From: Mobula hypostoma
Lineage: Eukaryota
Direction of reading: 5' to 3'
DNA: 64,000 nt
Assembly (NCBI RefSeq): GCF_963921235.1
Contig: NC_086097.1
Span: 29,762,001 to 29,826,000 of the forward strand
Below are positions 3,450-51,656 of this stretch, piece by piece. The notes under the pieces were generated by a model. The model had not been told where the DNA came from. It worked only from the letters and a program-made list of their open reading frames with translations, and searched no databases. Position 1 is the stretch's first letter; every line of letters starts with the position of its first letter. Both the position numbers and the translations under genes were made by a program.

Positions 3450-5150
3450 AGGTGAGAAGAAGGACAGAGCAGTTCCATTCCTCTGGTCGTCTCATTGCAG
3501 GAGGGATGCAGAGCCTCCAGAGAGGGTGCACAAGAGGCTCACCAGGGTGATGCCTGGATTAGGGGGCATGCGTATAATGACAGGCTGGACATACCTGAAC
3601 TGTTTCCTCTGGAGTGGCAGAGACCTGATAGAAGTTTATAAAATTATTGAACATAGATAAGTTCAGAGATGTACAGTATATGATTTTTACACAGAGAGTT
3701 GTGGGTGGCTAGAATACACTGCCAGAGGTGGTGGTGGAGGCAGATATGATAGAGAAGTTTAAGAGGCTCTTAAACAGACACGTGAATATCTGGGGAATGG
3801 AGGGATTTAGCACGTGTGCAGGCAGAAGAGAAGACAGAACAAAGAACATGAAAGGCAAGAATAGTGCAGCACAGTACAGGCCCTTCAGCCCGATGATGTT
3901 ATGCAACCTTTTAATCTACCCCAAGATAAATCTAATCCTTCCTTCCCATATAGCCCTCCATTTCTCATCCTTTAGTCTCATAGATCACTCAAAGTTGCTG
4001 CACAGATTGAGAGGATAGTTAAAAAGACATATGGTGTGTTGGCGTTCATTAGTTGGGTGACTGAGTTTAAGAGCCGTGAGGTAATGTTGCAGCTCTATAA
4101 AACCCTGGTTAGACCACACTTGGAAAATTGTGTTCAGTTCAGGTCGCCCCATTATAGGAAGGATGTGGCAGCTTTAGAGAGGGTGCAGAGGAGATTTACC
4201 AGGATGCTGCCTGGATTAGAGAGCATGTCTTAAGGGGTAGGTTGGGCAAGGGAGGGCTTTTCTCTTTGACGCAAGGAGGACAAGAGGCGAGTTGATATAG
4301 GTGTACAAGATGATAAGAGCCAGGGACCTTTTCCCCAGGGCAGAAATGACTAACACAAGGGGGCATAATTTTAAGGTGATTGGAGGAAAGTATAGGGGTA
4401 TGTCAGAGATAGGTTTTTTATACAGAGAGTAGTGGGTGCATGGAATGCCTTGCTAAGAGTGGTGGTGAAAGCAGATACATTAGGGACATTTAAAAGACTC
4501 CTAGGCATGATGGATGAAAGAAAATAGAAAGCTATGTGGGAGGGAAGGGTTAGATTGATCTTGGAATAGATTAAAATGTCAGCATAAGGTGGGTTGAGGG
4601 GTCTGTACTGTGCTGTAGTGGTCTGTGTTTTCTATTATATAGATTGCTAGCCATATCACTTCTATAAATTTGCTAATCTATAGATCAGACCTACACTAAT
4701 TACCATACATCTCAGGATTTTTGGGAGGAGCCAGAGGAGGACTAATATTCCAAGAGAAAGGGCATAAAATGTATTCCATAGCTTCATTGTTTCCCTTGTT
4801 TGAAGCTTACTCTTTTCCTGGCCAAGATGTTTCCTATAACTGGGGAGTCTAGGACAAGAGGGCACAGCCTTGGAAAAGAAGGATGTCCCTCTAGAACAGA
4901 GGAGGAAATCCTTTAGTCAGAGCAGTGAATCTGTGGAATTCATTGCCACAGGTGGCTGTGGAGGCCACATCATTGGGTACTGTATAAAGTGGAGGTTGTT
5001 AGGTTCATGATTAGTAAGGGTGTCAAAGATTAAGGGGAAATGGCAGGAGAATGGGGTTGAGGGTGATAATAAATCAGACATGATTGAATGTCAGAGCATA
5101 CTTGATGGGCTGAAAGCCTTAATTCTGCTCCTATGTCTCATGGTCTTATT
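3450..5150 (+). mobile_element. Patchwork of 5'-truncated CR1 LINE 3' ends
   Basis: LYKTLVRPHLENCVQFRSPHYRKDVAALERVQRRFTRM (CR1 RT C-terminus); CR1 3' UTR hairpins and tails. Confidence 0.8.
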
Positions 5151-6390
5151 GGCTGTAAGGCAGCAGCAAATCAGTAAAAAATTAATTTTGCAAAATGCAA
5201 AATTGAAGCCCACAAGTCATTGTTAGCCACCTCCAAGTCAACACACTGCCATAACTTGGACAATTTGGATAACATCCGTCAGTGTGAGGAGAAAGCGAAA
5301 GGGAGGTGGCGTATGTTCTCATCCTGGCAACATCGCTGGCCCTTGCCCCTGATGGATCTACAGCAGGGGGATTCTGGTCACTCCCTGCTGGCCAGGGACA
5401 ACGCCCAGAGGCAGAGACTGGATTCACCACTGGGGGAAAGCCCCAGGACATTGGCAGAGACCCCGTCAAAGACAGGCCGGTATAGGAAAAGGATAGGACA
5501 CCTTTCCACCAAGGGATCTCAATTCAGAATCTCAGGATGGAAGGTGATCACAGTGAAGGCAGCCAGCAATCTGCCGTCTACACAGAAGAATCATCAACAC
5601 TTGGAATATTGAGATGTACAGAAGGCAAACTTGGCATGTCCTCCCAAGTGTACGGAAAACACATCAGATGCCAACACAAATGGAATCACATGCCAAGGAA
5701 CTCCTTTTCAACTGGCGATATCAGGAACTAGTTGTGGAGACAGGATTCATAGCTTACATCTGATTATGCTTAATCATGTCAAAGATAGCTTAGTTTAAAT
5801 AATCATTTGCTTATTTAGGGTAACACATCATTAATAAACTTCACTTCTTTGCGGCTTAGATCAATAATAGGATGGATGCAACAGAAACTGGAATTGGTTT
5901 ATTATTGTGCTGAGATACAGAGCAGTGAAAATTTGCCTGTTCATACAGTTCAAATCATTACCCAGTGCAATGATGTAGTACAAGGGAAAACAATAATAAT
6001 GCAGAATAAAGTGTAACAGTTACGGAGAAATTACAGTGGAAGTAAACAAAAAGGTGCAAGGTTATAAAATAAAACATTGAACGTAGAGCATGACAGCACG
6101 GATCAAACCCTTTGGCACACATAGTCATGTCAACGTTTTACCCATCTCCAAGATCAATCTAACCCTTTCCTCCCAAAGAGCTCTCCATTTGTCTTTCATT
6201 CACGAACCTATCTAAGAGGCTCTTAAATGTCCCTAACATATCTGCCTCTACCACCCCTCCTGACAGATGTTCCATGCAACTGGGTGTAAAAAACCTGCCT
6301 CTGACGTCACCCCCTATACTTACCAACAATCCCCTTAAAATTATGCTGCTGGCTTTAGCCATTTCTGCGCTGGGAAAAAGGCACTGCTGG

Positions 6391-13910: not shown

Positions 13911-15027
13911 GCTTCCTAGATTGGAGACCATGTCTTATGAGGATAGGTAGGGCTTTTTTCTTTGGAGCAAAGGAAGATTAGAAGTGACTAGATAGAGGTG
14001 TACAAGATGATGAGAGGCATACATAGGGCAGAAATGGCAAACACCAGGGGACATAATTTTATGGTGACTGGAGGACAGTATAGTGGGGGGATGTCAGAAG
14101 AAGGTCCTTTTAAAAGAAGTGGTGAGTTATGAGGGGTATAGATAGGGTAAATGCAAACACGAGGGAGTCTGCAGATGCTGGAAATTCAAGCAACACACAC
14201 AAAATGCTGGTGGAACGCTGCATTCCACCAGCATTTTGTGTGTGTTGGTTGGGTAAATGCAAGCAGGCTTTTTCCATTGAAGTTGGGTGGGACTACAACT
14301 AGAGGTCATGGGTTAAGGGTGAAAGGTGAGAAGTTTTTCAGGGGAGCATGAAGGAAAACTTCTTCACTCAGAGGGTCATGAGAGTGACAGCACAAGTGGT
14401 GCATGCGAGCTCAATTTCAACATTTAAGAGAAATTTGGATATGTACATGGATGGTAGGGGTATGGAGGGCTATGGTCCCAGTGCAGGTTGATGGGAGGAG
14501 GCAGCTTAAATGGTTTGGCACAGACTAGATGAGATGAAGGGCCTGTTTATGTGCTCTACTCCTCTATGACTTTATGACTCCAAAATTTTCCCCTCAGTTT
14601 CCTATTAAAACTCTTCCCTTAGACCTGTGTCCTCCAGTTTTTGATTCCCCAGTGCTGGGGATAAAGACAGTGTGCATTGAACAGATTAAACACTGAACAA
14701 ATATAAGAACAAATTATGTACACTATGCTGAAAACACAATATTATTTATAATGTTTATTCATTATTATAAAAACAATAAATACAATAGAGCAATTATAAA
14801 GTGATGGAGGCTCGCCATAAGAGCAGACGTCAAAGGAATTATTTGCAGGCACCTCCTGTCGATGTTAGCCACAGTAACCATGCTGCTTGTACCTGCAGCA
14901 AGATCTATTCTGTTCCAAGGTTGTGGCTTGAAACGTTGACAATTCCATTCCCCCCACAGATGCTACCTGACCCGTCGAGTTCCTCTTGGTGCTCCAGATT
15001 CCTGCATCTGTTATGTTTTGTATACAT

Positions 15028-27675: not shown

Positions 27676-28187
27676 CTGCATGACAAAGGAGCATTTCCAT
27701 TTAAATTAGTAACCTCTTGGACTCCAGCTCCTCACAATCTACCTTGTTTTGATCTTGTACTTTATCATTTACCTGCACTGTATGTCCTCTATGGCTGTTA
27801 CACTTTAGTCTGCATTGTTATTGTTTTACCTTATTCTAGCTCAATGTGCAATGATCTGATCTGTATGGACAGTAGGTAAGGCAAGCTTTTCACTGTAACT
27901 TTGTACTTGTGACAATAATAAACCAATAGCCTACTTGTGAAGAAAACACTGCATAGATACAACAAGTAAATGTAAGGTTGTGTGTTCATTAGAACTTGAG
28001 TTGGTAGAGTTGATAGGAGGTGGGATTATGGAAAATTTAGGATATAAGGATGAATATACATAGGGATTTGTGGGATTAGAGAAGTTGGGATAGTTTAATA
28101 ACTGTGGGACAGAAACTGTCCTTGAGTTTAATGGTACATGATTTCAGGATTTTGTGTTTTCTGCTCAATGGGAGGGAGAGAAGAGAG

Positions 28188-31100
28188 TGTAAGGGGTTTC
28201 TTTTTTTATGTCACTGCGTAGTCTAATTAAAATTTTTACTATTTTTAATATTTTTCATATTTAATATTTATAATCCAGGGAGTGGGAAGCGCAGAATCAA
28301 ATATCGCTGTGATGATTGTACGTTCTAGTACCAATTGTTTGGCGACAATAAAGTATAAAGTATAAAGTATAAATGGCTTCTTTGCTATGTTATAATTGAA
28401 AGGGCTTCTTTGTTATGTTACCTGCTGAGAAAGTCCTCCCGCTAGCAGTTTGTTTTGGATTATCTATTGATAAGAGGAGGTATGAACCAATTGGGATAGT
28501 TGTTATGCTTTCTGTGTGTCTGTAAGATATTGTATTGTCTGTTATTTGGGCGGGGTGGGGTACATCACACAGCATCCACACAAACTAATTACCCAGTTTG
28601 GTGGGGCCGAGGGCTGTTTCCCTAGATGACAGCGAGCCGAGCGACCCTGAGGCTCTCCGGGGGGTTACATTGTGGGGGCTTTTGTCCAGGATTGGATCTA
28701 GTGGTATGCTGTGTGGTTGCCCTATTTAAATCAGTAAGTGTCTCTGTGGGTTATTTGCTGGTTATTGCTGCATGCGTGGTGGGTGAGGTCTTTGTTCGAG
28801 TTCAGACTAGCGTTGACGAGTTGGGGGTGGAACTCGGGGCTGTCCATGCGGTTGGGAGAGAGAGGAAAGAGTGGCCTGATTCGGAGGTAGTTTCTGAGAA
28901 TAAATGTTCTAGCTCTGGCAGGCTCCGTCTGGTGTTTGGGATAGTGCCCACCCCAAGAGGGGCAGAGGCGTGCGAGACATGGGCGGAGCGGATCTCTCAG
29001 TTGTTAGATGGGTGGCAGTGCTCGGTTGAGGGAGAGCGACAGGGATTGGTTGAAAGTTTAAGTTAACGGGCTGGTGACGGTGTTAGAGCTGTCAGGCTCA
29101 GTTACACTGTAGTGACAGCTGTCAGTTATTTGAAAGAGGGGGGAAAGTTTTCTGTGTGTCTTCTCTGGCTAGGAGGGCGGCTAAATTGCTTGCAGTGCCA
29201 GGGGGATCATTTCAGGGGATCAGCCCCTCCTTCAGTTGTTCAGCTGATCAGGGAGGTGTCGGGAAACTTAGTGGAGGCCCAGTCGGGGAACAGCTTGGGG
29301 TCTTTGGGGAAGCAGGTTCCCAGCAATGCACCAATGAACTTCCGAAAGGAGAAGACCCTATTCCTGAAGGCTTAGAGGGGCCACGCCCCAGGGTGTCGCT
29401 ATGGATAGAGGGAAGCGATGCTAAAGCTATCCTCGACCCCGGGGCACAGATCAAGTTGTTGTACAGTTCGTTTTACAACCGGTGTCTGAAGCATTTACCC
29501 TTGACAACCGCAAGGGCACCGGAGATTTGGGGTACCAGTGCCAGTAGTTATCCAGAAGATGATGATTGGTTACTGACCCTGGAGCTCATGAGGGCATTGT
29601 CTGGGCACCCAGCGTGTCGAGTTGCTTCTGAGGACGTGTGTAGCAGCCTTGAGCCAGTACCGAATTTAAACGAGACCCAGCTGTGGTACGGCCTGGGGAA
29701 AGTAACTGAGGGTGAGACCCTCTTAGTAGATGCTCCGAACTACCACGAGGGAGGGGAGTTGACCGCTGAAGACACCTCAGTGAGAGAGAGGTTGCGGCAA
29801 CTGGACCCTAGCGGCGTGGAAGATGGAGGCAGCGTGTGTGCAAATTATGCGACGTGGTTTAATGTGCTAGATCTGAGGAGTGGATGTTGCCAGATCCTGA
29901 GGAGTGCGGCTGACGAGCAGGAGACGGCCGTTATTAGTTCGCTGGGATTCTTCCGATCCGAAAAGATGCCCAAGGGCATATCCGGAGCCCCCGCATCCTT
30001 CCCGCGGGGCATGAGGAAGACCATGGGGGAAGTGAAGGTGTGTGGAGTTTTGGCGTATGTGGATGACCGCCTAGAGCTTGGATTCACCTGGGGGGACTAT
30101 GAGGCGAGGCGGGTGGCTGAGCCCGGGCGACAGAAGCGAAGTGTCAAATGTGGAGGAGTTTTTGGCTGGAGGTGCAATGTGAGAAAAATGACCCGACATA
30201 CCAGTTGAACTTCCTGGTGTTGGGACAGACGGTGGTGGACCTGGGGATGGAAACGCAGGTCGTCAACCGGAATGAGATACAGGGGAGAGAGGGGATTTGC
30301 ACCGCTGAACTGAACGCTCAGAAATGCAGGCCGGAGACGGAGTGCCGCACTTGCGGGACGACCATTGCAGACTTGGAATTCACGCTCGTCAACGTGGAGA
30401 AGGAGCAATGGAATTCCGAGCCGACACTGCGGTCATGTACTGATGAATTAATCCAGAAAAGATAGGAGGACTTACAAGTTGGGGAAGATCAAGGAAATGT
30501 TCTGATTAAGGCCAACAGAAAACCGAGAGCCAAGGGAGGGGAGTTTGACTACACTCCCGAGGAGGTGAAGAAATGGAGGACAGATCTCGGAAAAGGGAGG
30601 CGGACGCTTGAAAGGAACCTGAAGATGACTATCGACAGTTTAAATGAAGTGGAAAAACTGAAAGTTGACCTGGAAGAAGTCATCAGGAGGAAAAGACTGG
30701 AGGTTGAACATTCTTTAACTGCTGCTTTTCAGGTCAGGGTGGAAGAAGCTGGTGGGGTAACTGCATCCCAGATTGAGATGGCCAAGAAGCGTGAGTCGGA
30801 ACTGCTGAGGCTGTGGCGAGAGTTGAAGGAGTCCCCAAAGAAGCTGATGTCTCGACTGCAGGAGGCTGAAGGGGTAGCTCCGGCTAAATGCTTCAGTTTG
30901 AAAAAACTCAAACAGCAGCTACCGATCGAGGGAATGAGGAAGGATACGGGTTTGAAGGATGATGTGCTGGACATGTGGTATATGCTGCCTTTCGCTAACT
31001 TCTCCGTGATTGAGGAAGAGACCTTTGGCCCTTCTCCCACTGAGTCAGGTGTAGTGGGGAGGGCTAGCTGTGGGCAGTCTGGGTTACTGCAGGACAAGGA

Positions 31101-32371
31101 AGGAAAAGAAGCGGGGCCCCGGACATGGGACTGGGGGCTCCGAGCTGTAATGGTGGCACGAGTGAGAGAGGAGTTGGCGAGCAGACCCGAGGTATCCCTA
31201 GTAGTGTCTGAGCCTTTTGGGTTTAGGTGAGGAGGTACGAAGGTCTTGGAGGATTAGGAAGCTCTCAGATAGGTTGGCCTCTGTAGCGCCCGTGGACAGG
31301 TGGAAGGTCCACTGTTTGGGGGAGCAATGTCGCTGTCTGTATCTGGGTGGGGTTTTGTGTCTGTAGGACTGGTTGGTGAGTTATTTAGAAGTCATGAGGA
31401 CATGACTTTTATTTGGTGGGGGGAGAATATAAAGGGTTTCTTTTTTTATGTCACTGCATAGTCTAATTAAAACTGCTTCTCTGGTATATTATAATGGAAA
31501 GGGCTTCTTTGTTATGTCAACTGCTGAGAAAGGCCTCCTGCTAGAGGTTTGTTTTGGATTAGCTATTGATAAAAGGACGAATGAACCAATTGGGATAGTT
31601 GTTATGCTTTGGTGTGTCTGTAAGATATTGTATGCATGGGGTTTTGGAGGAGAAGGCGGGAGAGAGAGACAGAGGATGGACCAGGTGCTGTGAATCCGCT
31701 AACGGGGTCGGACCCCGAGCAGGAGTCCGAGGTCCAGGGTGTTCAGCGAGGAGAGGAGACAGAGACGGACTCGTGTGGAGCGTCTGGTCGACCACCGTTG
31801 TTGGTCCCAGGTGGCAGGTCGAGATGGTCTGAGGGGATCATAGTGTGAAGAAGGAGGGTCCTGAGCTCCAACTGTTTGTGCACGAACAGATTGAACTTTG
31901 ATAAGTGTGGAGCCTTTGATTTTCCTTTTATATTTTATTCTCTATTAACACAGAGAGTGGTGGGAGTATGGAATGAGCTGCCAGACGAGGTGGTAAATGC
32001 GGGTTCTTTTTTAACATTTAAGAATAAATTGGACAGATACATGGATGGGAGGCATATGGAGGGATATGGTCTGTGTGCAGGTCAGTGGGACTAGGCAGAA
32101 AATGGTTCGGCACAGCCAAAAAGGGCCAAAAGGCCTGTTTCTGTGCTGTAGTTTCTATGGTTTCTATGGTAATTATATAGTTCCAGTAATATCTATAAAC
32201 TGTAAATCATTTAATCGTATCTGGTGTATTGTCTGTTATTTGGGCGGGGTGGGGTACATCACACAGTATCCACACAAACTAATTACCCAGTTTGGCGGGG
32301 CTGAGGGCTGTTTCCCTAGACGACAGCGAGCCGAGCGACCTTAAGGCTGGCTTGGGGGGGTGGGGGCTACA
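28188..32371 (+). mobile_element. Non-autonomous Gypsy LTR retrotransposon (LTRs 28188-28669 and 31428-32371) with degraded gag/protease/RT and a captured myosin fragment
   Basis: TGTAAGGGG...GGGGCTACA termini and 4-bp TSD AGAG. Homologous LTR pair, tRNA-Pro-like PBS tgggggcttttgtccaggat after the 5' LTR, and PPT ggtggggggagaa before the 3' LTR. PNMA-like gag, ILDPGAQ protease, and RT motifs LDLRSG...[12 protein letters not shown]...AYVDD. Confidence 0.9.
30175..30930 (+). pseudogene. Intronless sarcomeric myosin heavy chain rod fragment (MYH16-like) inside the LTR element
   Basis: Single frame with one internal stop: EKNDPTYQL...AELNAQKCRPETEC...IADLEFTLVNVEKE...[17 protein letters not shown]...[29 protein letters not shown]...[57 protein letters not shown]. 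This is collinear with myosin S2/LMM motifs. Confidence 0.85.
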
Positions 32372-32661
32372 AGAGAATGTTCAGGGTGGGTGGAGTCTTT
32401 GATTATGTTGGATGCTGTACTAGGGCACTGAGAAATCCAGGGAGAGCATCATATCTAGCTGTTTAATTCCCAGTCAGAAACATGTCACCTTACTGAGCAC
32501 TTGGAACCCAGTGCCACCGTGTTTTCTGTCTGCTGGCACAGTGATGGAGTCAGGGGCTCACACAGCACAGAAACAGACCCTTGGCCCAACTCACCCATAC
32601 TGACAAAATGCCCATCTGAACTACTCCAAGGAGCCTGTGTGTGGTCCATGTTCATCTAAAC

Positions 32662-46492: not shown

Positions 46493-47323
<831 letters not shown>

Positions 47324-50717: not shown

Positions 50718-51656
50718 TGGAAGTCGGTACAGAGGAGATGTCAGGGGTAAGTTTTTTACGCAGAGAGTGGTGAGTGTGTGGAATGGGCTGCCGGCGACAG
50801 TGGTGGAGGCGGATACGATAGGGTCTTTTAAGAGACTTTTAGATAGGTACATGGAGCTTAGGAAAATAGACAGCTACGGGTAACCCAAGGTAATTTCATG
50901 TTTGGCACAGCATTGTGGGTCAAAGGGCCTGTATTGTGCTGTAGGTTTTCTATGTTTCCAGATACAGCACAGAAACAGACCCTTCTGCCCCTCAGGTTTG
51001 TGCTGACCAACAAGCATCTATTTACACTAGTCCTATACTAATCCCATTTTACTCACCTCACTTCCCCATCTAGTCCCTCCAGATTCCACCAGTTCAGAGG
51101 GGCAATGCACAGCAGCCAGAAAATCCACGGACCCCCCCACCTCATTGGGGTATGGGAGGAGATAAGAACACCCTGGGAGAAACCTAGGCACCACAGAGAG
51201 AGCTGGCAAACTCCACACAAGCAGTGCCAGATGCCGGGACTGAAGCCAGGTCTCTGCAATTCTAATGGCCCAGATCTACCAACTGCAACATCGCGTCATC
51301 CTGAAGTGATTGGTTTGTTGGAGAGAGTCATAGAACACTACAGCACAGAAACAGGCCCTTTGGTCCATCTAGTCTGTGCCAAACTATTATTCTGTCGAGT
51401 CTCATCTATCTGCACCCAGACCACAGCCCTTCACACCCCTCCCATCCACATACTAGTTCAAAATTCCCTTAAATGTTGCAGTTGAACCTGCATTCACTAC
51501 TTCCGCTGGCAGCTCATTCCACACTCACATTATCCTCCAGACAAAGAAGTTCCCCCTCAGGTTCCCCTTTAAATATTTGATTTTTCACCCTTAACCTATA
51601 ACCTCTGGTTCTAGTGTCACCCAACCTCAGTGGAAAAAGCCTTCTTGCATTTAAAC

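Follow-up and report, generated by a model that had tools for sequence, protein, structure and literature searches.

Capture of host messenger RNAs by long terminal repeat (LTR) elements, known as LTR-mediated retroposition, has been recorded in flies, mosquito, zebrafish, chicken and mammals, and the cases given in the cited passages are single or few-copy, for example, 1-5 copies of Bs1 (Tan et al. 2016, PMC5131818). Similarly, endogenous retroviruses (ERVs) captured KIT-ligand and nectin3 in crocodilians, according to the cited part of Chong et al. 2014 (PMC4299795). Here, we describe a capture of this kind in a 64,000-nucleotide stretch of the genome of Mobula hypostoma (contig NC_086097.1, positions 29,762,001 to 29,826,000 of the forward strand; hereafter, the window). 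Positions 28188-32371 of the window are a complete, old and decayed copy of a non-autonomous Ty3/Gypsy LTR-retrotransposon family that carries a spliced fragment of a host myosin heavy chain gene. It is highly likely that, in the founder of this family, a captured, spliced host myosin mRNA replaced the integrase, and that the resulting chimera spread in trans and then eroded.

As in LTR-mediated retroposition as presented in the cited passages (PMC5131818), a partial, spliced host mRNA stands in place of part of an internal open reading frame (ORF) between discontinuous element flanks, the junctions show what may be short microsimilarities and no poly(A), and the chimera was mobilised again as a non-autonomous element. 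The difference lies in scale, with at least 40 confirmed and ~850 candidate copies here, several subfamilies and more than one organism label, compared to the few copies mentioned in that source (PMC5131818). With retroviral transduction, and with the crocodilian ERVs as the cited passages describe them (PMC4299795), the family shares the gain of a spliced host mRNA at the cost of a viral gene, as well as defectiveness, dependence on a helper and germ-line spread. However, the crocodilian ERVs of that account carry whole ORFs under purifying selection, whereas the present insert is a truncated internal rod fragment that shows no sign of selection, and its carrier is a Ty3/Gypsy element that lost the integrase instead of env (PMC4299795). 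From the Ty3/Gypsy elements (Metaviridae) with a PNMA-like gag, the family retains TG..CA LTRs, 4-bp duplications and a polypurine tract, and an autonomous relative has reverse transcriptase (RT), RNase H and integrase in the same order as those elements; in contrast, the window copy lacks an integrase, contains only scraps of RT and RNase H, harbours the host insert and is not autonomous. Searches, which covered full-text literature, yielded no report of this family or of any myosin-carrying LTR element. The mechanism and the kind of capture are already known; the copy number is unusual.

The myosin segment and its host source gene

The myosin-derived segment of the window copy spans ~690 bp in the sense orientation and in frame. 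Among the host myosin genes listed by a Pfam and exon search of the genome, one gene, at C68:14.52-14.71 Mb, matches it with five exons (C68:14524967-14525196, 14612356-504, 14663721-817, 14666489-554 and 14707333-456) that span 182.5 kb in the host and are collinear and intron-free in the element. The identity between the window and these exons is 79.4% over 175 nt, 85.2% over 142 nt, 87.5% over 40 nt, 89.2% over 65 nt and 72.8% over 103 nt (window positions 30234-30408, 30542-30683, 30740-30779, 30770-30834 and 30838-30931, respectively); for a less deleted copy of the family, E52, the corresponding values are 91.3%, 93.3%, 90.7%, 90.9% and 88.7%. The insert spans at least four parental introns, so that the exon-exon junctions sought as a check on the sequence-only reading of this locus are indeed present, and the claim of that reading that a sarcomeric myosin rod sequence had been captured in spliced form is borne out. 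The gene on C68 bears introns and further exons that are not found in the element; because these exons have no counterpart there, the gene is the source of the insert and not its derivative.

Protein comparisons agree with this assignment. Residues 908-1204 of a shark MYH16-like protein match the window segment with E=6.8e-26 (tblastn), and all 13 PDB matches of the window at E<=1 are myosin heavy chains or MYH7 fusion constructs, aligned in collinear blocks. The 184-aa open myosin stretch of E52 retrieved 78 proteins at E<=1e-3 among 2464 candidates from a collection of 5.8 billion proteins, the best E value being 1.6e-31. Thus, the myosin likeness is real and goes beyond generic coiled-coil similarity, the proof of origin coming from the DNA identity to host exons and from less decayed copies rather than from the window protein alone.

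The class of myosin from which the insert derives is less sharply defined. Of the 18 best hits of the E52 stretch, 15 are named myosin-16 or MYH16(-like) and 3 have generic names, with a fast skeletal myosin in the 19th place; names of the myosin-16 type also dominate the matches of the parental exon, and shark MYH16-like proteins share the 'EGDLKMTIE' motif with the insert. MYH16, the masticatory or 'superfast' myosin heavy chain, thus provides the best-scoring named relatives of both the insert and the parental exons. The parental exons differ from it in that they are only 54-75% identical to annotated MYH16 proteins, compared to 50-64% for other classes. In a phylogenetic tree (26 rows, 360 columns), the element and the parental exons are joined with support of 100/99 on a long branch, and the clade of annotated MYH16 (98/99) excludes both of them; they also fall outside the other sarcomeric myosins. 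Judging from these comparisons, 'MYH16-like' is a fair description of the source gene, whereas the name 'MYH16' goes beyond the tree: the MYH16 guess of the sequence-only reading holds for the best hits but not for the phylogeny.

Other host genes were considered as sources and rejected. The fast skeletal MYH cluster at C68:15.3-15.9 Mb reaches merely 73% identity over 94 nt, far below the gene at C68:14.6 Mb, and the non-muscle myosin II genes (C36, C45 and C68:25.4 Mb) gave no convincing match. Exons that encode only a part of the rod are spread over at least 182 kb of the source gene, the introns being 3-87 kb long, and the gene is highly divergent (loci L067, L060, L058, L057, L059 and L068). 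No upstream parental exons were found within 9 kb of the first exons located; they sit 51 and 87 kb further off. Eight fast-type MYH genes form a tandem cluster (C68:15.31-15.89 Mb) ~0.6 Mb away.

Replacement of the integrase and spread of the family

The copy E52 (C1:175390300-175398500, minus strand) has 633-bp LTRs that are 89.9% identical and a TAAA duplication. It retains RT and RNase H up to '...NIDVDVLSRQ', followed by ~1.0 kb of myosin and then by the tail of pol. The myosin part corresponds to residues 881 to ~1178 of the shark MYH16-like protein and then jumps to residues ~1384-1420; the jump occurs at a CTGGA microhomology between '...RRELEE' and '...SNRKKL', inside an exon, and hence reflects a deletion or a template jump, not exon skipping. 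For comparison only, we used an autonomous relative, L063 (C40:64397600-64404400), in which the gag ORF contains a PNMA domain (E=4.4e-37) and an ORF of 1453 aa encompasses RVT_1, RT_RNaseH_2/RT_RNaseH, Integrase_H2C2 and rve, in that order, which is the Ty3/Gypsy layout; the assignment of the family to Ty3/Gypsy is based on this domain content and order together with the PNMA-like gag. E52 is collinear with the relative on both sides of the myosin piece and resumes at pol aa 1100, and the ~1.56 kb of the relative in between (nt 3731-5294, pol aa 572-1099, with the whole integrase) have no counterpart in E52. The myosin piece, therefore, took the place of the entire integrase, replacing rather than interrupting element sequence. 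In the C-terminal part of its pol ORF (nt 5394-6035), the relative contains a tandem repeat with a period of ~84 bp and units that are 95-96% alike.

At the 5' junction, AGGAG is found in the relative as well as in E52 and the parental exon, with 12 of 14 nt agreeing when the comparison is extended, and at the 3' junction GAG is shared, or GAGAAG under a two-step reading; these microsimilarities come from comparing genomic exons with a ~70%-identical relative and not with the true recombination partners. The 5' junction is at the first bases of the parental exon (cag/GAGCGGG, with the slash at the exon boundary), within ~5 nt of the exon start, and the 3' junction is 18 nt (0-18 nt) before the exon end (GAGAAG/gtaggt). 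Neither a poly(A) tract nor an inner duplication, the marks of a later retrocopy insertion named in the sequence-only reading, was found at the junctions of the insert, which is embedded between discontinuous parts of Gypsy pol. These features plausibly fit the microsimilarity-dependent template switch of LTR-mediated retroposition, in which RT would have changed templates at the short shared motifs.

Because both junctions are near exon boundaries, a splice-assisted capture is possible as well. Under this scenario, which we consider unlikely although it is the best of the alternatives, an element in sense orientation within a myosin intron produced a read-through transcript that was spliced from a cryptic donor in pol to the downstream exon, and the 3' junction arose by non-homologous recombination during reverse transcription. 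Read-through combined with splicing is the classical model of retroviral oncogene capture, and the sense orientation and preserved frame of the insert, along with the position of its ends, are compatible with it. However, the relative lacks a good GT donor at the junction, the splice product would be 2 nt longer than observed, the 22.6 kb fetched from the parental locus showed no element of the family, and the shared AGGAG fits a template switch equally well. Thus, of the capture by template switching proposed in the sequence-only reading, the acquisition of a spliced mRNA stands, whereas the switch itself is plausible, and the splice-assisted route would account for the junctions as well.

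Sequences with the same chimeric structure are widespread in the genome. An 801-nt myosin query produced 868 first-look candidates, and all 40 that were scored matched, at 83-94% identity; a 126-nt query across the junction between myosin and the pol tail produced 847, and again 40 of 40 scored places matched over the full length, at 93-94% identity and on many contigs; a third query produced 763. In terms of family size, at least 40 places are confirmed, and ~850 is the number of first-look candidates. In all 29 fetched copies other than the window copy itself, Gypsy sequence flanks the myosin piece on both sides. Three elements have different 4-bp duplications (AGAG, CAAT and TAAA), which implies independent integrations and mobilisation of the chimera in trans, presumably by helper elements. 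The suggestion of the sequence-only reading that the locus defines a mobile, gene-carrying family is therefore confirmed by these differing duplications and by a junction that recurs in all 40 places scored.

Most copies belong to shorter subfamilies. The 5' junction is retained at only ~8 of 150 scored places, and the subfamily of the window copy lacks ~270 bp around that junction, 60 nt of myosin (10 of the 29 compared copies) and further rod pieces; the trimming by deletions that had been proposed from the letters of the window is apparent in the comparison with longer copies. A search with an RNase H tether gave 2348 first-look candidates, and open frames, the longest of 1453 aa, are common among the 150 places scored. 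The family is explained by one capture, after which the chimera was mobilised in trans and eroded step by step.

Two copies, L002 (C96:15640056-15643861) and L003 (C96:15369632-15373437), are in opposite orientations and have identical match statistics; they probably represent a segmental (inverted) duplication rather than two insertions. The genome also contains intron-free myosin-tail pieces with stops, at C18:48745314-48746731, C50:30689110-30689772, C184:304888-305403, C157:172388-172903, C21:138691427-138692201 and C12:196941089 / 197103644, which are of the non-muscle type by their Pfam positions. As further captures, such pieces (C18, C50, C21, C22, C12 and C184) were rejected, given that no Gypsy protein or DNA match was detected in the stretches fetched; they are probably ordinary processed pseudogenes. 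Two of the pieces sit 5-7 kb from Gypsy RNase H matches on C12.

Selection on the passenger and alternative histories

To the parental exons (306 nt, 35 copies pooled), the myosin passenger shows 425, 334 and 376 differences at codon positions 1, 2 and 3, respectively. In the window-type subfamily (25 copies), substitutions present in at least 80% of the copies are 10 synonymous and 17 non-synonymous, and private substitutions are 35 synonymous and 70 non-synonymous, the neutral expectation for the synonymous share being 22-28%. For 11 open-frame copies, the Nei-Gojobori method gave ratios of non-synonymous to synonymous substitution rates (dN/dS) of 0.59 (pol remnant), 0.65 (myosin part) and 0.84 (tail), equal to the apparent ratio found for the private changes, which must be neutral. 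The passenger looks dead because the substitutions show no amino-acid constraint. Nevertheless, 13 of the 35 copies are open across the entire myosin span, and three copies have open frames of 724, 679 and 670 aa, with LTR identities of 90.9%, 88.8% and 97.2%, respectively. Given that ~4-4.7% of substitutions create stops and that nearest-copy distances are 4-7%, well under one old open copy is expected in the sample, compared to the two that were seen. We regard these surviving open frames as a mild anomaly, not as evidence of function.

These observations bear on the possibility that the chimeric frame, consisting of protease, the RT remnant, the myosin coiled coil and the pol tail, is translated, or once was, to the benefit of the family; for instance, the coiled coil could multimerise and carry RNA into the particles of the helper. 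If true, this would amount to the recruitment of a piece of muscle myosin as an accessory domain of a retrotransposon. Apart from the open frames, two of the three long ones being in insertions with diverged LTRs, the length distribution of larger indels could be taken in its favour: among indels of at least 9 nt, 8 of the 11 shared ones are multiples of three, compared to 20 of the 49 private ones. However, shared indels of all lengths are in frame no more often (8 of 43) than private ones (32 of 132), there is no excess of third-position or synonymous changes either in replicating lineages or after insertion, dN/dS is ~0.6 in the pol remnant and the myosin part alike, as for neutral changes, and parts of the coiled coil are missing from the most successful subfamily. 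A functional chimera, accordingly, seems quite improbable, and for the chimeric coiled-coil protein entertained in the sequence-only reading, codon positions, dN/dS and shared versus private changes give no sign of upkeep by selection.

It is still far less likely that a processed pseudogene of myosin made by a long interspersed nuclear element (LINE) landed in a Gypsy element that subsequently spread. The insert is free of introns, as such a pseudogene would be, but it derives from an internal part of the mRNA and stops near residue 1420 of ~1940. Moreover, neither poly(A) nor a flanking duplication accompanies it, and 1.56 kb of pol are replaced, not interrupted. Finally, chance or generic coiled-coil similarity without a host origin, which the weak scores of the window's own translation might seem to allow, is refuted by five exons of a single host gene that are collinear with the insert and 73-93% identical to it at the nucleotide level, and by the E value of 1.6e-31 obtained for the less decayed E52.

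Under the history that we favour, capture of a spliced mRNA followed by mobilisation in trans, a founder element would have acquired ~1.0 kb of spliced mRNA from the divergent MYH16-like host gene at C68:14.52-14.71 Mb in exchange for ~1.56 kb of pol. The founder insert, an in-frame piece in sense orientation, would have covered approximately rod residues 881-1178 joined to 1384-1420, and the chimera would have retained the LTRs, the primer-binding site, the polypurine tract and the leader. The integrase and, for the shorter forms, also RT would be supplied in trans by autonomous relatives, so that the chimera could be copied to at least 40 places (~850 candidates). Later subfamilies shed further sequence, namely the bulk of both RT and RNase H as well as parts of the myosin. 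The window copy belongs to one of these; two foreign insertions, a frameshift and a stop were added after it inserted, and its 5' LTR suffered a deletion.

Several results weigh against this history or some part of it. The 270-aa read-through of the window yielded nothing at E<=0.01 among 3505 candidates from the collection of 5.8 billion proteins, and Pfam detected no myosin family, Myosin_tail included, in the window ORFs. For the 82-aa parental exon, no annotated protein in the same collection is more than 67% identical, which implies that the source gene is unannotated or unusual, and only five exons of that gene were located. The autonomous relative is only ~70-74% identical to the family at the DNA level, and is probably not the true progenitor or helper. 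The junction microsimilarities are short, and their proximity to exon boundaries would suit the splice route too. Finally, in two old copies, the LTRs of which are 90.9% and 88.8% identical, frames of 724 and 679 aa are still open, somewhat more than neutral decay is expected to leave.

The window copy and gene models probably derived from the family

The features of the window copy are listed in Table 1. The LTR pair is marked by direct repeats of 141 nt (89%), 134 nt (93%) and 50 nt (92%) in a self-comparison of the window; the 5' LTR starts with TG and the 3' LTR with TA, and both finish with CA. Over two aligned parts, the LTRs are 90.0% (160 nt) and 92.7% (137 nt) identical, and because the identity is only this high, the insertion is old. 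The 5' LTR is ~320-370 bp shorter than the 3' LTR and the LTRs of other copies, and the comparison of copies identifies 31626-31948 of the 3' LTR as normal family LTR sequence that was deleted from the 5' LTR. A polypurine tract is immediately 5' of the 3' LTR in 5 of the 5 elements inspected. The sequence TGGGGGCT begins 3 nt past the 5' LTR in the window and 2-3 nt past the LTR across the elements inspected, the longer copy E52 having TGGGGGCTCGTCC at this position; this primer-binding-site-like stretch may resemble the 3' end of tRNA-Pro. Repeats, termini, flanks and the positions of these two stretches all support the complete LTR-internal-LTR structure with AGAG duplication, primer-binding site and polypurine tract that had been recognised from the sequence.

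Table 1. Features of the LTR-retrotransposon copy, in window coordinates
Feature	Position	Strand	Basis or comment
Target-site duplication AGAG, 5' copy	28184..28187		read from sequence
5' LTR	28188..28669	+	direct repeats, copy comparison, termini; starts TG, ends CA
Foreign insertion within 5' LTR	28233..28370		not in 3' LTR or in LTRs of other copies
Primer-binding-site-like stretch TGGGGGCTTTTGTCC...	28673..28690	+	position next to 5' LTR
gag remnant	28837..29334	+	DNA matches to gag of E52 and of the autonomous relative
Putative protease-like remnant, ILDPGA at 29429-29446	29390..29590	+	motif; no Pfam match
RT remnant, YVDD at 30056-30067	29816..30151	+	tblastn with pol of the relative
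RNase H remnant, 59 nt	30181..30239	+	matches E52 4397-4456
Myosin-derived segment, spliced, internally deleted rod sequence	30240..30931	+	five parental exons, tblastn, PDB matches
In-frame TAG in myosin frame	30463..30465	+	beside 60-nt deletion common to 10 of 29 compared copies
C-terminal tail of Gypsy pol, downstream of lost integrase	30936..31230	+	DNA match to L063 5272-5400; stop TGA 31228-31230
Polypurine tract GGTGGGGGGAGAA	31415..31427	+	directly 5' of 3' LTR
3' LTR	31428..32371	+	direct repeats, copy comparison
Interspersed repeat within 3' LTR, private to window copy	31949..32162		other copies skip from 31948 to 32163
Target-site duplication AGAG, 3' copy	32372..32375		read from sequence

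The only foreign insertions in the window copy are 28233-28370 and 31949-32162. The first, 138 bp long and AT-rich, is itself a small repeat; it recurs at another position in copy L017, with 89% identity. The repeat in the 3' LTR has three further copies in the window (14396-14568, 46637-46775 and 51329-51529) that are 73-76% alike, and a related repeat in the myosin-gene loci translates as a LINE-like ORF end (...FFTQRVV..WN.LP...).

The pol remnants of the window copy are in the Gypsy order, without integrase. The PNMA match is weak (E=0.0011, in the ORF at 28626-29066, by Pfam), and the DNA of 29253-29496 aligns with the ORF upstream of RT in the autonomous relative. The RT remnant is 45% identical to aa 204-320 of the relative's pol (E=1.4e-22, tblastn), and its RVT_1 match (E=0.0024) is under the Pfam cut-off. 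Weak CENPH and NPP-6 matches on window ORFs were likewise below the cut-off and were disregarded. The block 'EKND..QL' at 30175-30239, which the sequence-only reading had counted as myosin, corresponds to SERNYPTQKLNFLALERAV in E52, in the region of the RNase H motif aligned to the relative's pol; specifically, E52 4397-4456 falls in the RNase H stretch aligned to pol aa 395-505. The block is thus a Gypsy RNase H remnant, and a short piece of RNase H survives in the window. Consequently, the earlier description of 30175-30930 as one-frame coiled coil with a single stop is right for the myosin part, with its one TAG, but wrong at its start, and the statement that the rest of RT, RNase H and integrase are missing applies to the integrase and most of pol, which are replaced, but not to this short piece. 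The TAG is the single stop of the frame 30121-31230. For the pol tail, E52 provides protein matches, which cover pol aa 1100-1158 and 1351-1452.

Parts of the stretch occur in 20 listed run rows, with six coded organism labels and from eight studies. Contigs from 3 of the 4 runs compared (X10, X13 and X18; labels A, C and D) run across the junction and extend more than 31 nt to either side of it. None of the rows is listed as RNA; being contigs, the runs cannot show transcription, and one label may be the window's own species. In a representative library, the best matches to the chimeric frame of E52 are short proteins. Four RefSeq models of 227-296 aa (P0190, P0191, P0194 and P0339), three from Mobula hypostoma and one from M. 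birostris, match the element fragment at 61-67% identity, under the names 'myosin heavy chain, cardiac muscle isoform-like', 'myosin-16-like', 'myosin heavy chain, skeletal muscle-like' and 'uncharacterized protein'. These short Mobula models are probably annotation artefacts, that is, element copies annotated as genes.

In practical terms, the family probably yields false 'myosin-like' gene models. More generally, here, in a cartilaginous fish, a captured fragment spread along with its carrier and is present in hundreds of candidate copies, compared to the animal cases that are mostly single or few-copy. It is also unusual that the source gene, an autonomous relative, the junctions and the intermediates are all preserved and that several subfamilies stem from one chimera; because the preserved components, both junctions included, can still be read, the steps of capture and erosion can be traced within one genome. 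The source gene, a very large, divergent and apparently unannotated sarcomeric myosin gene, may merit interest in itself.

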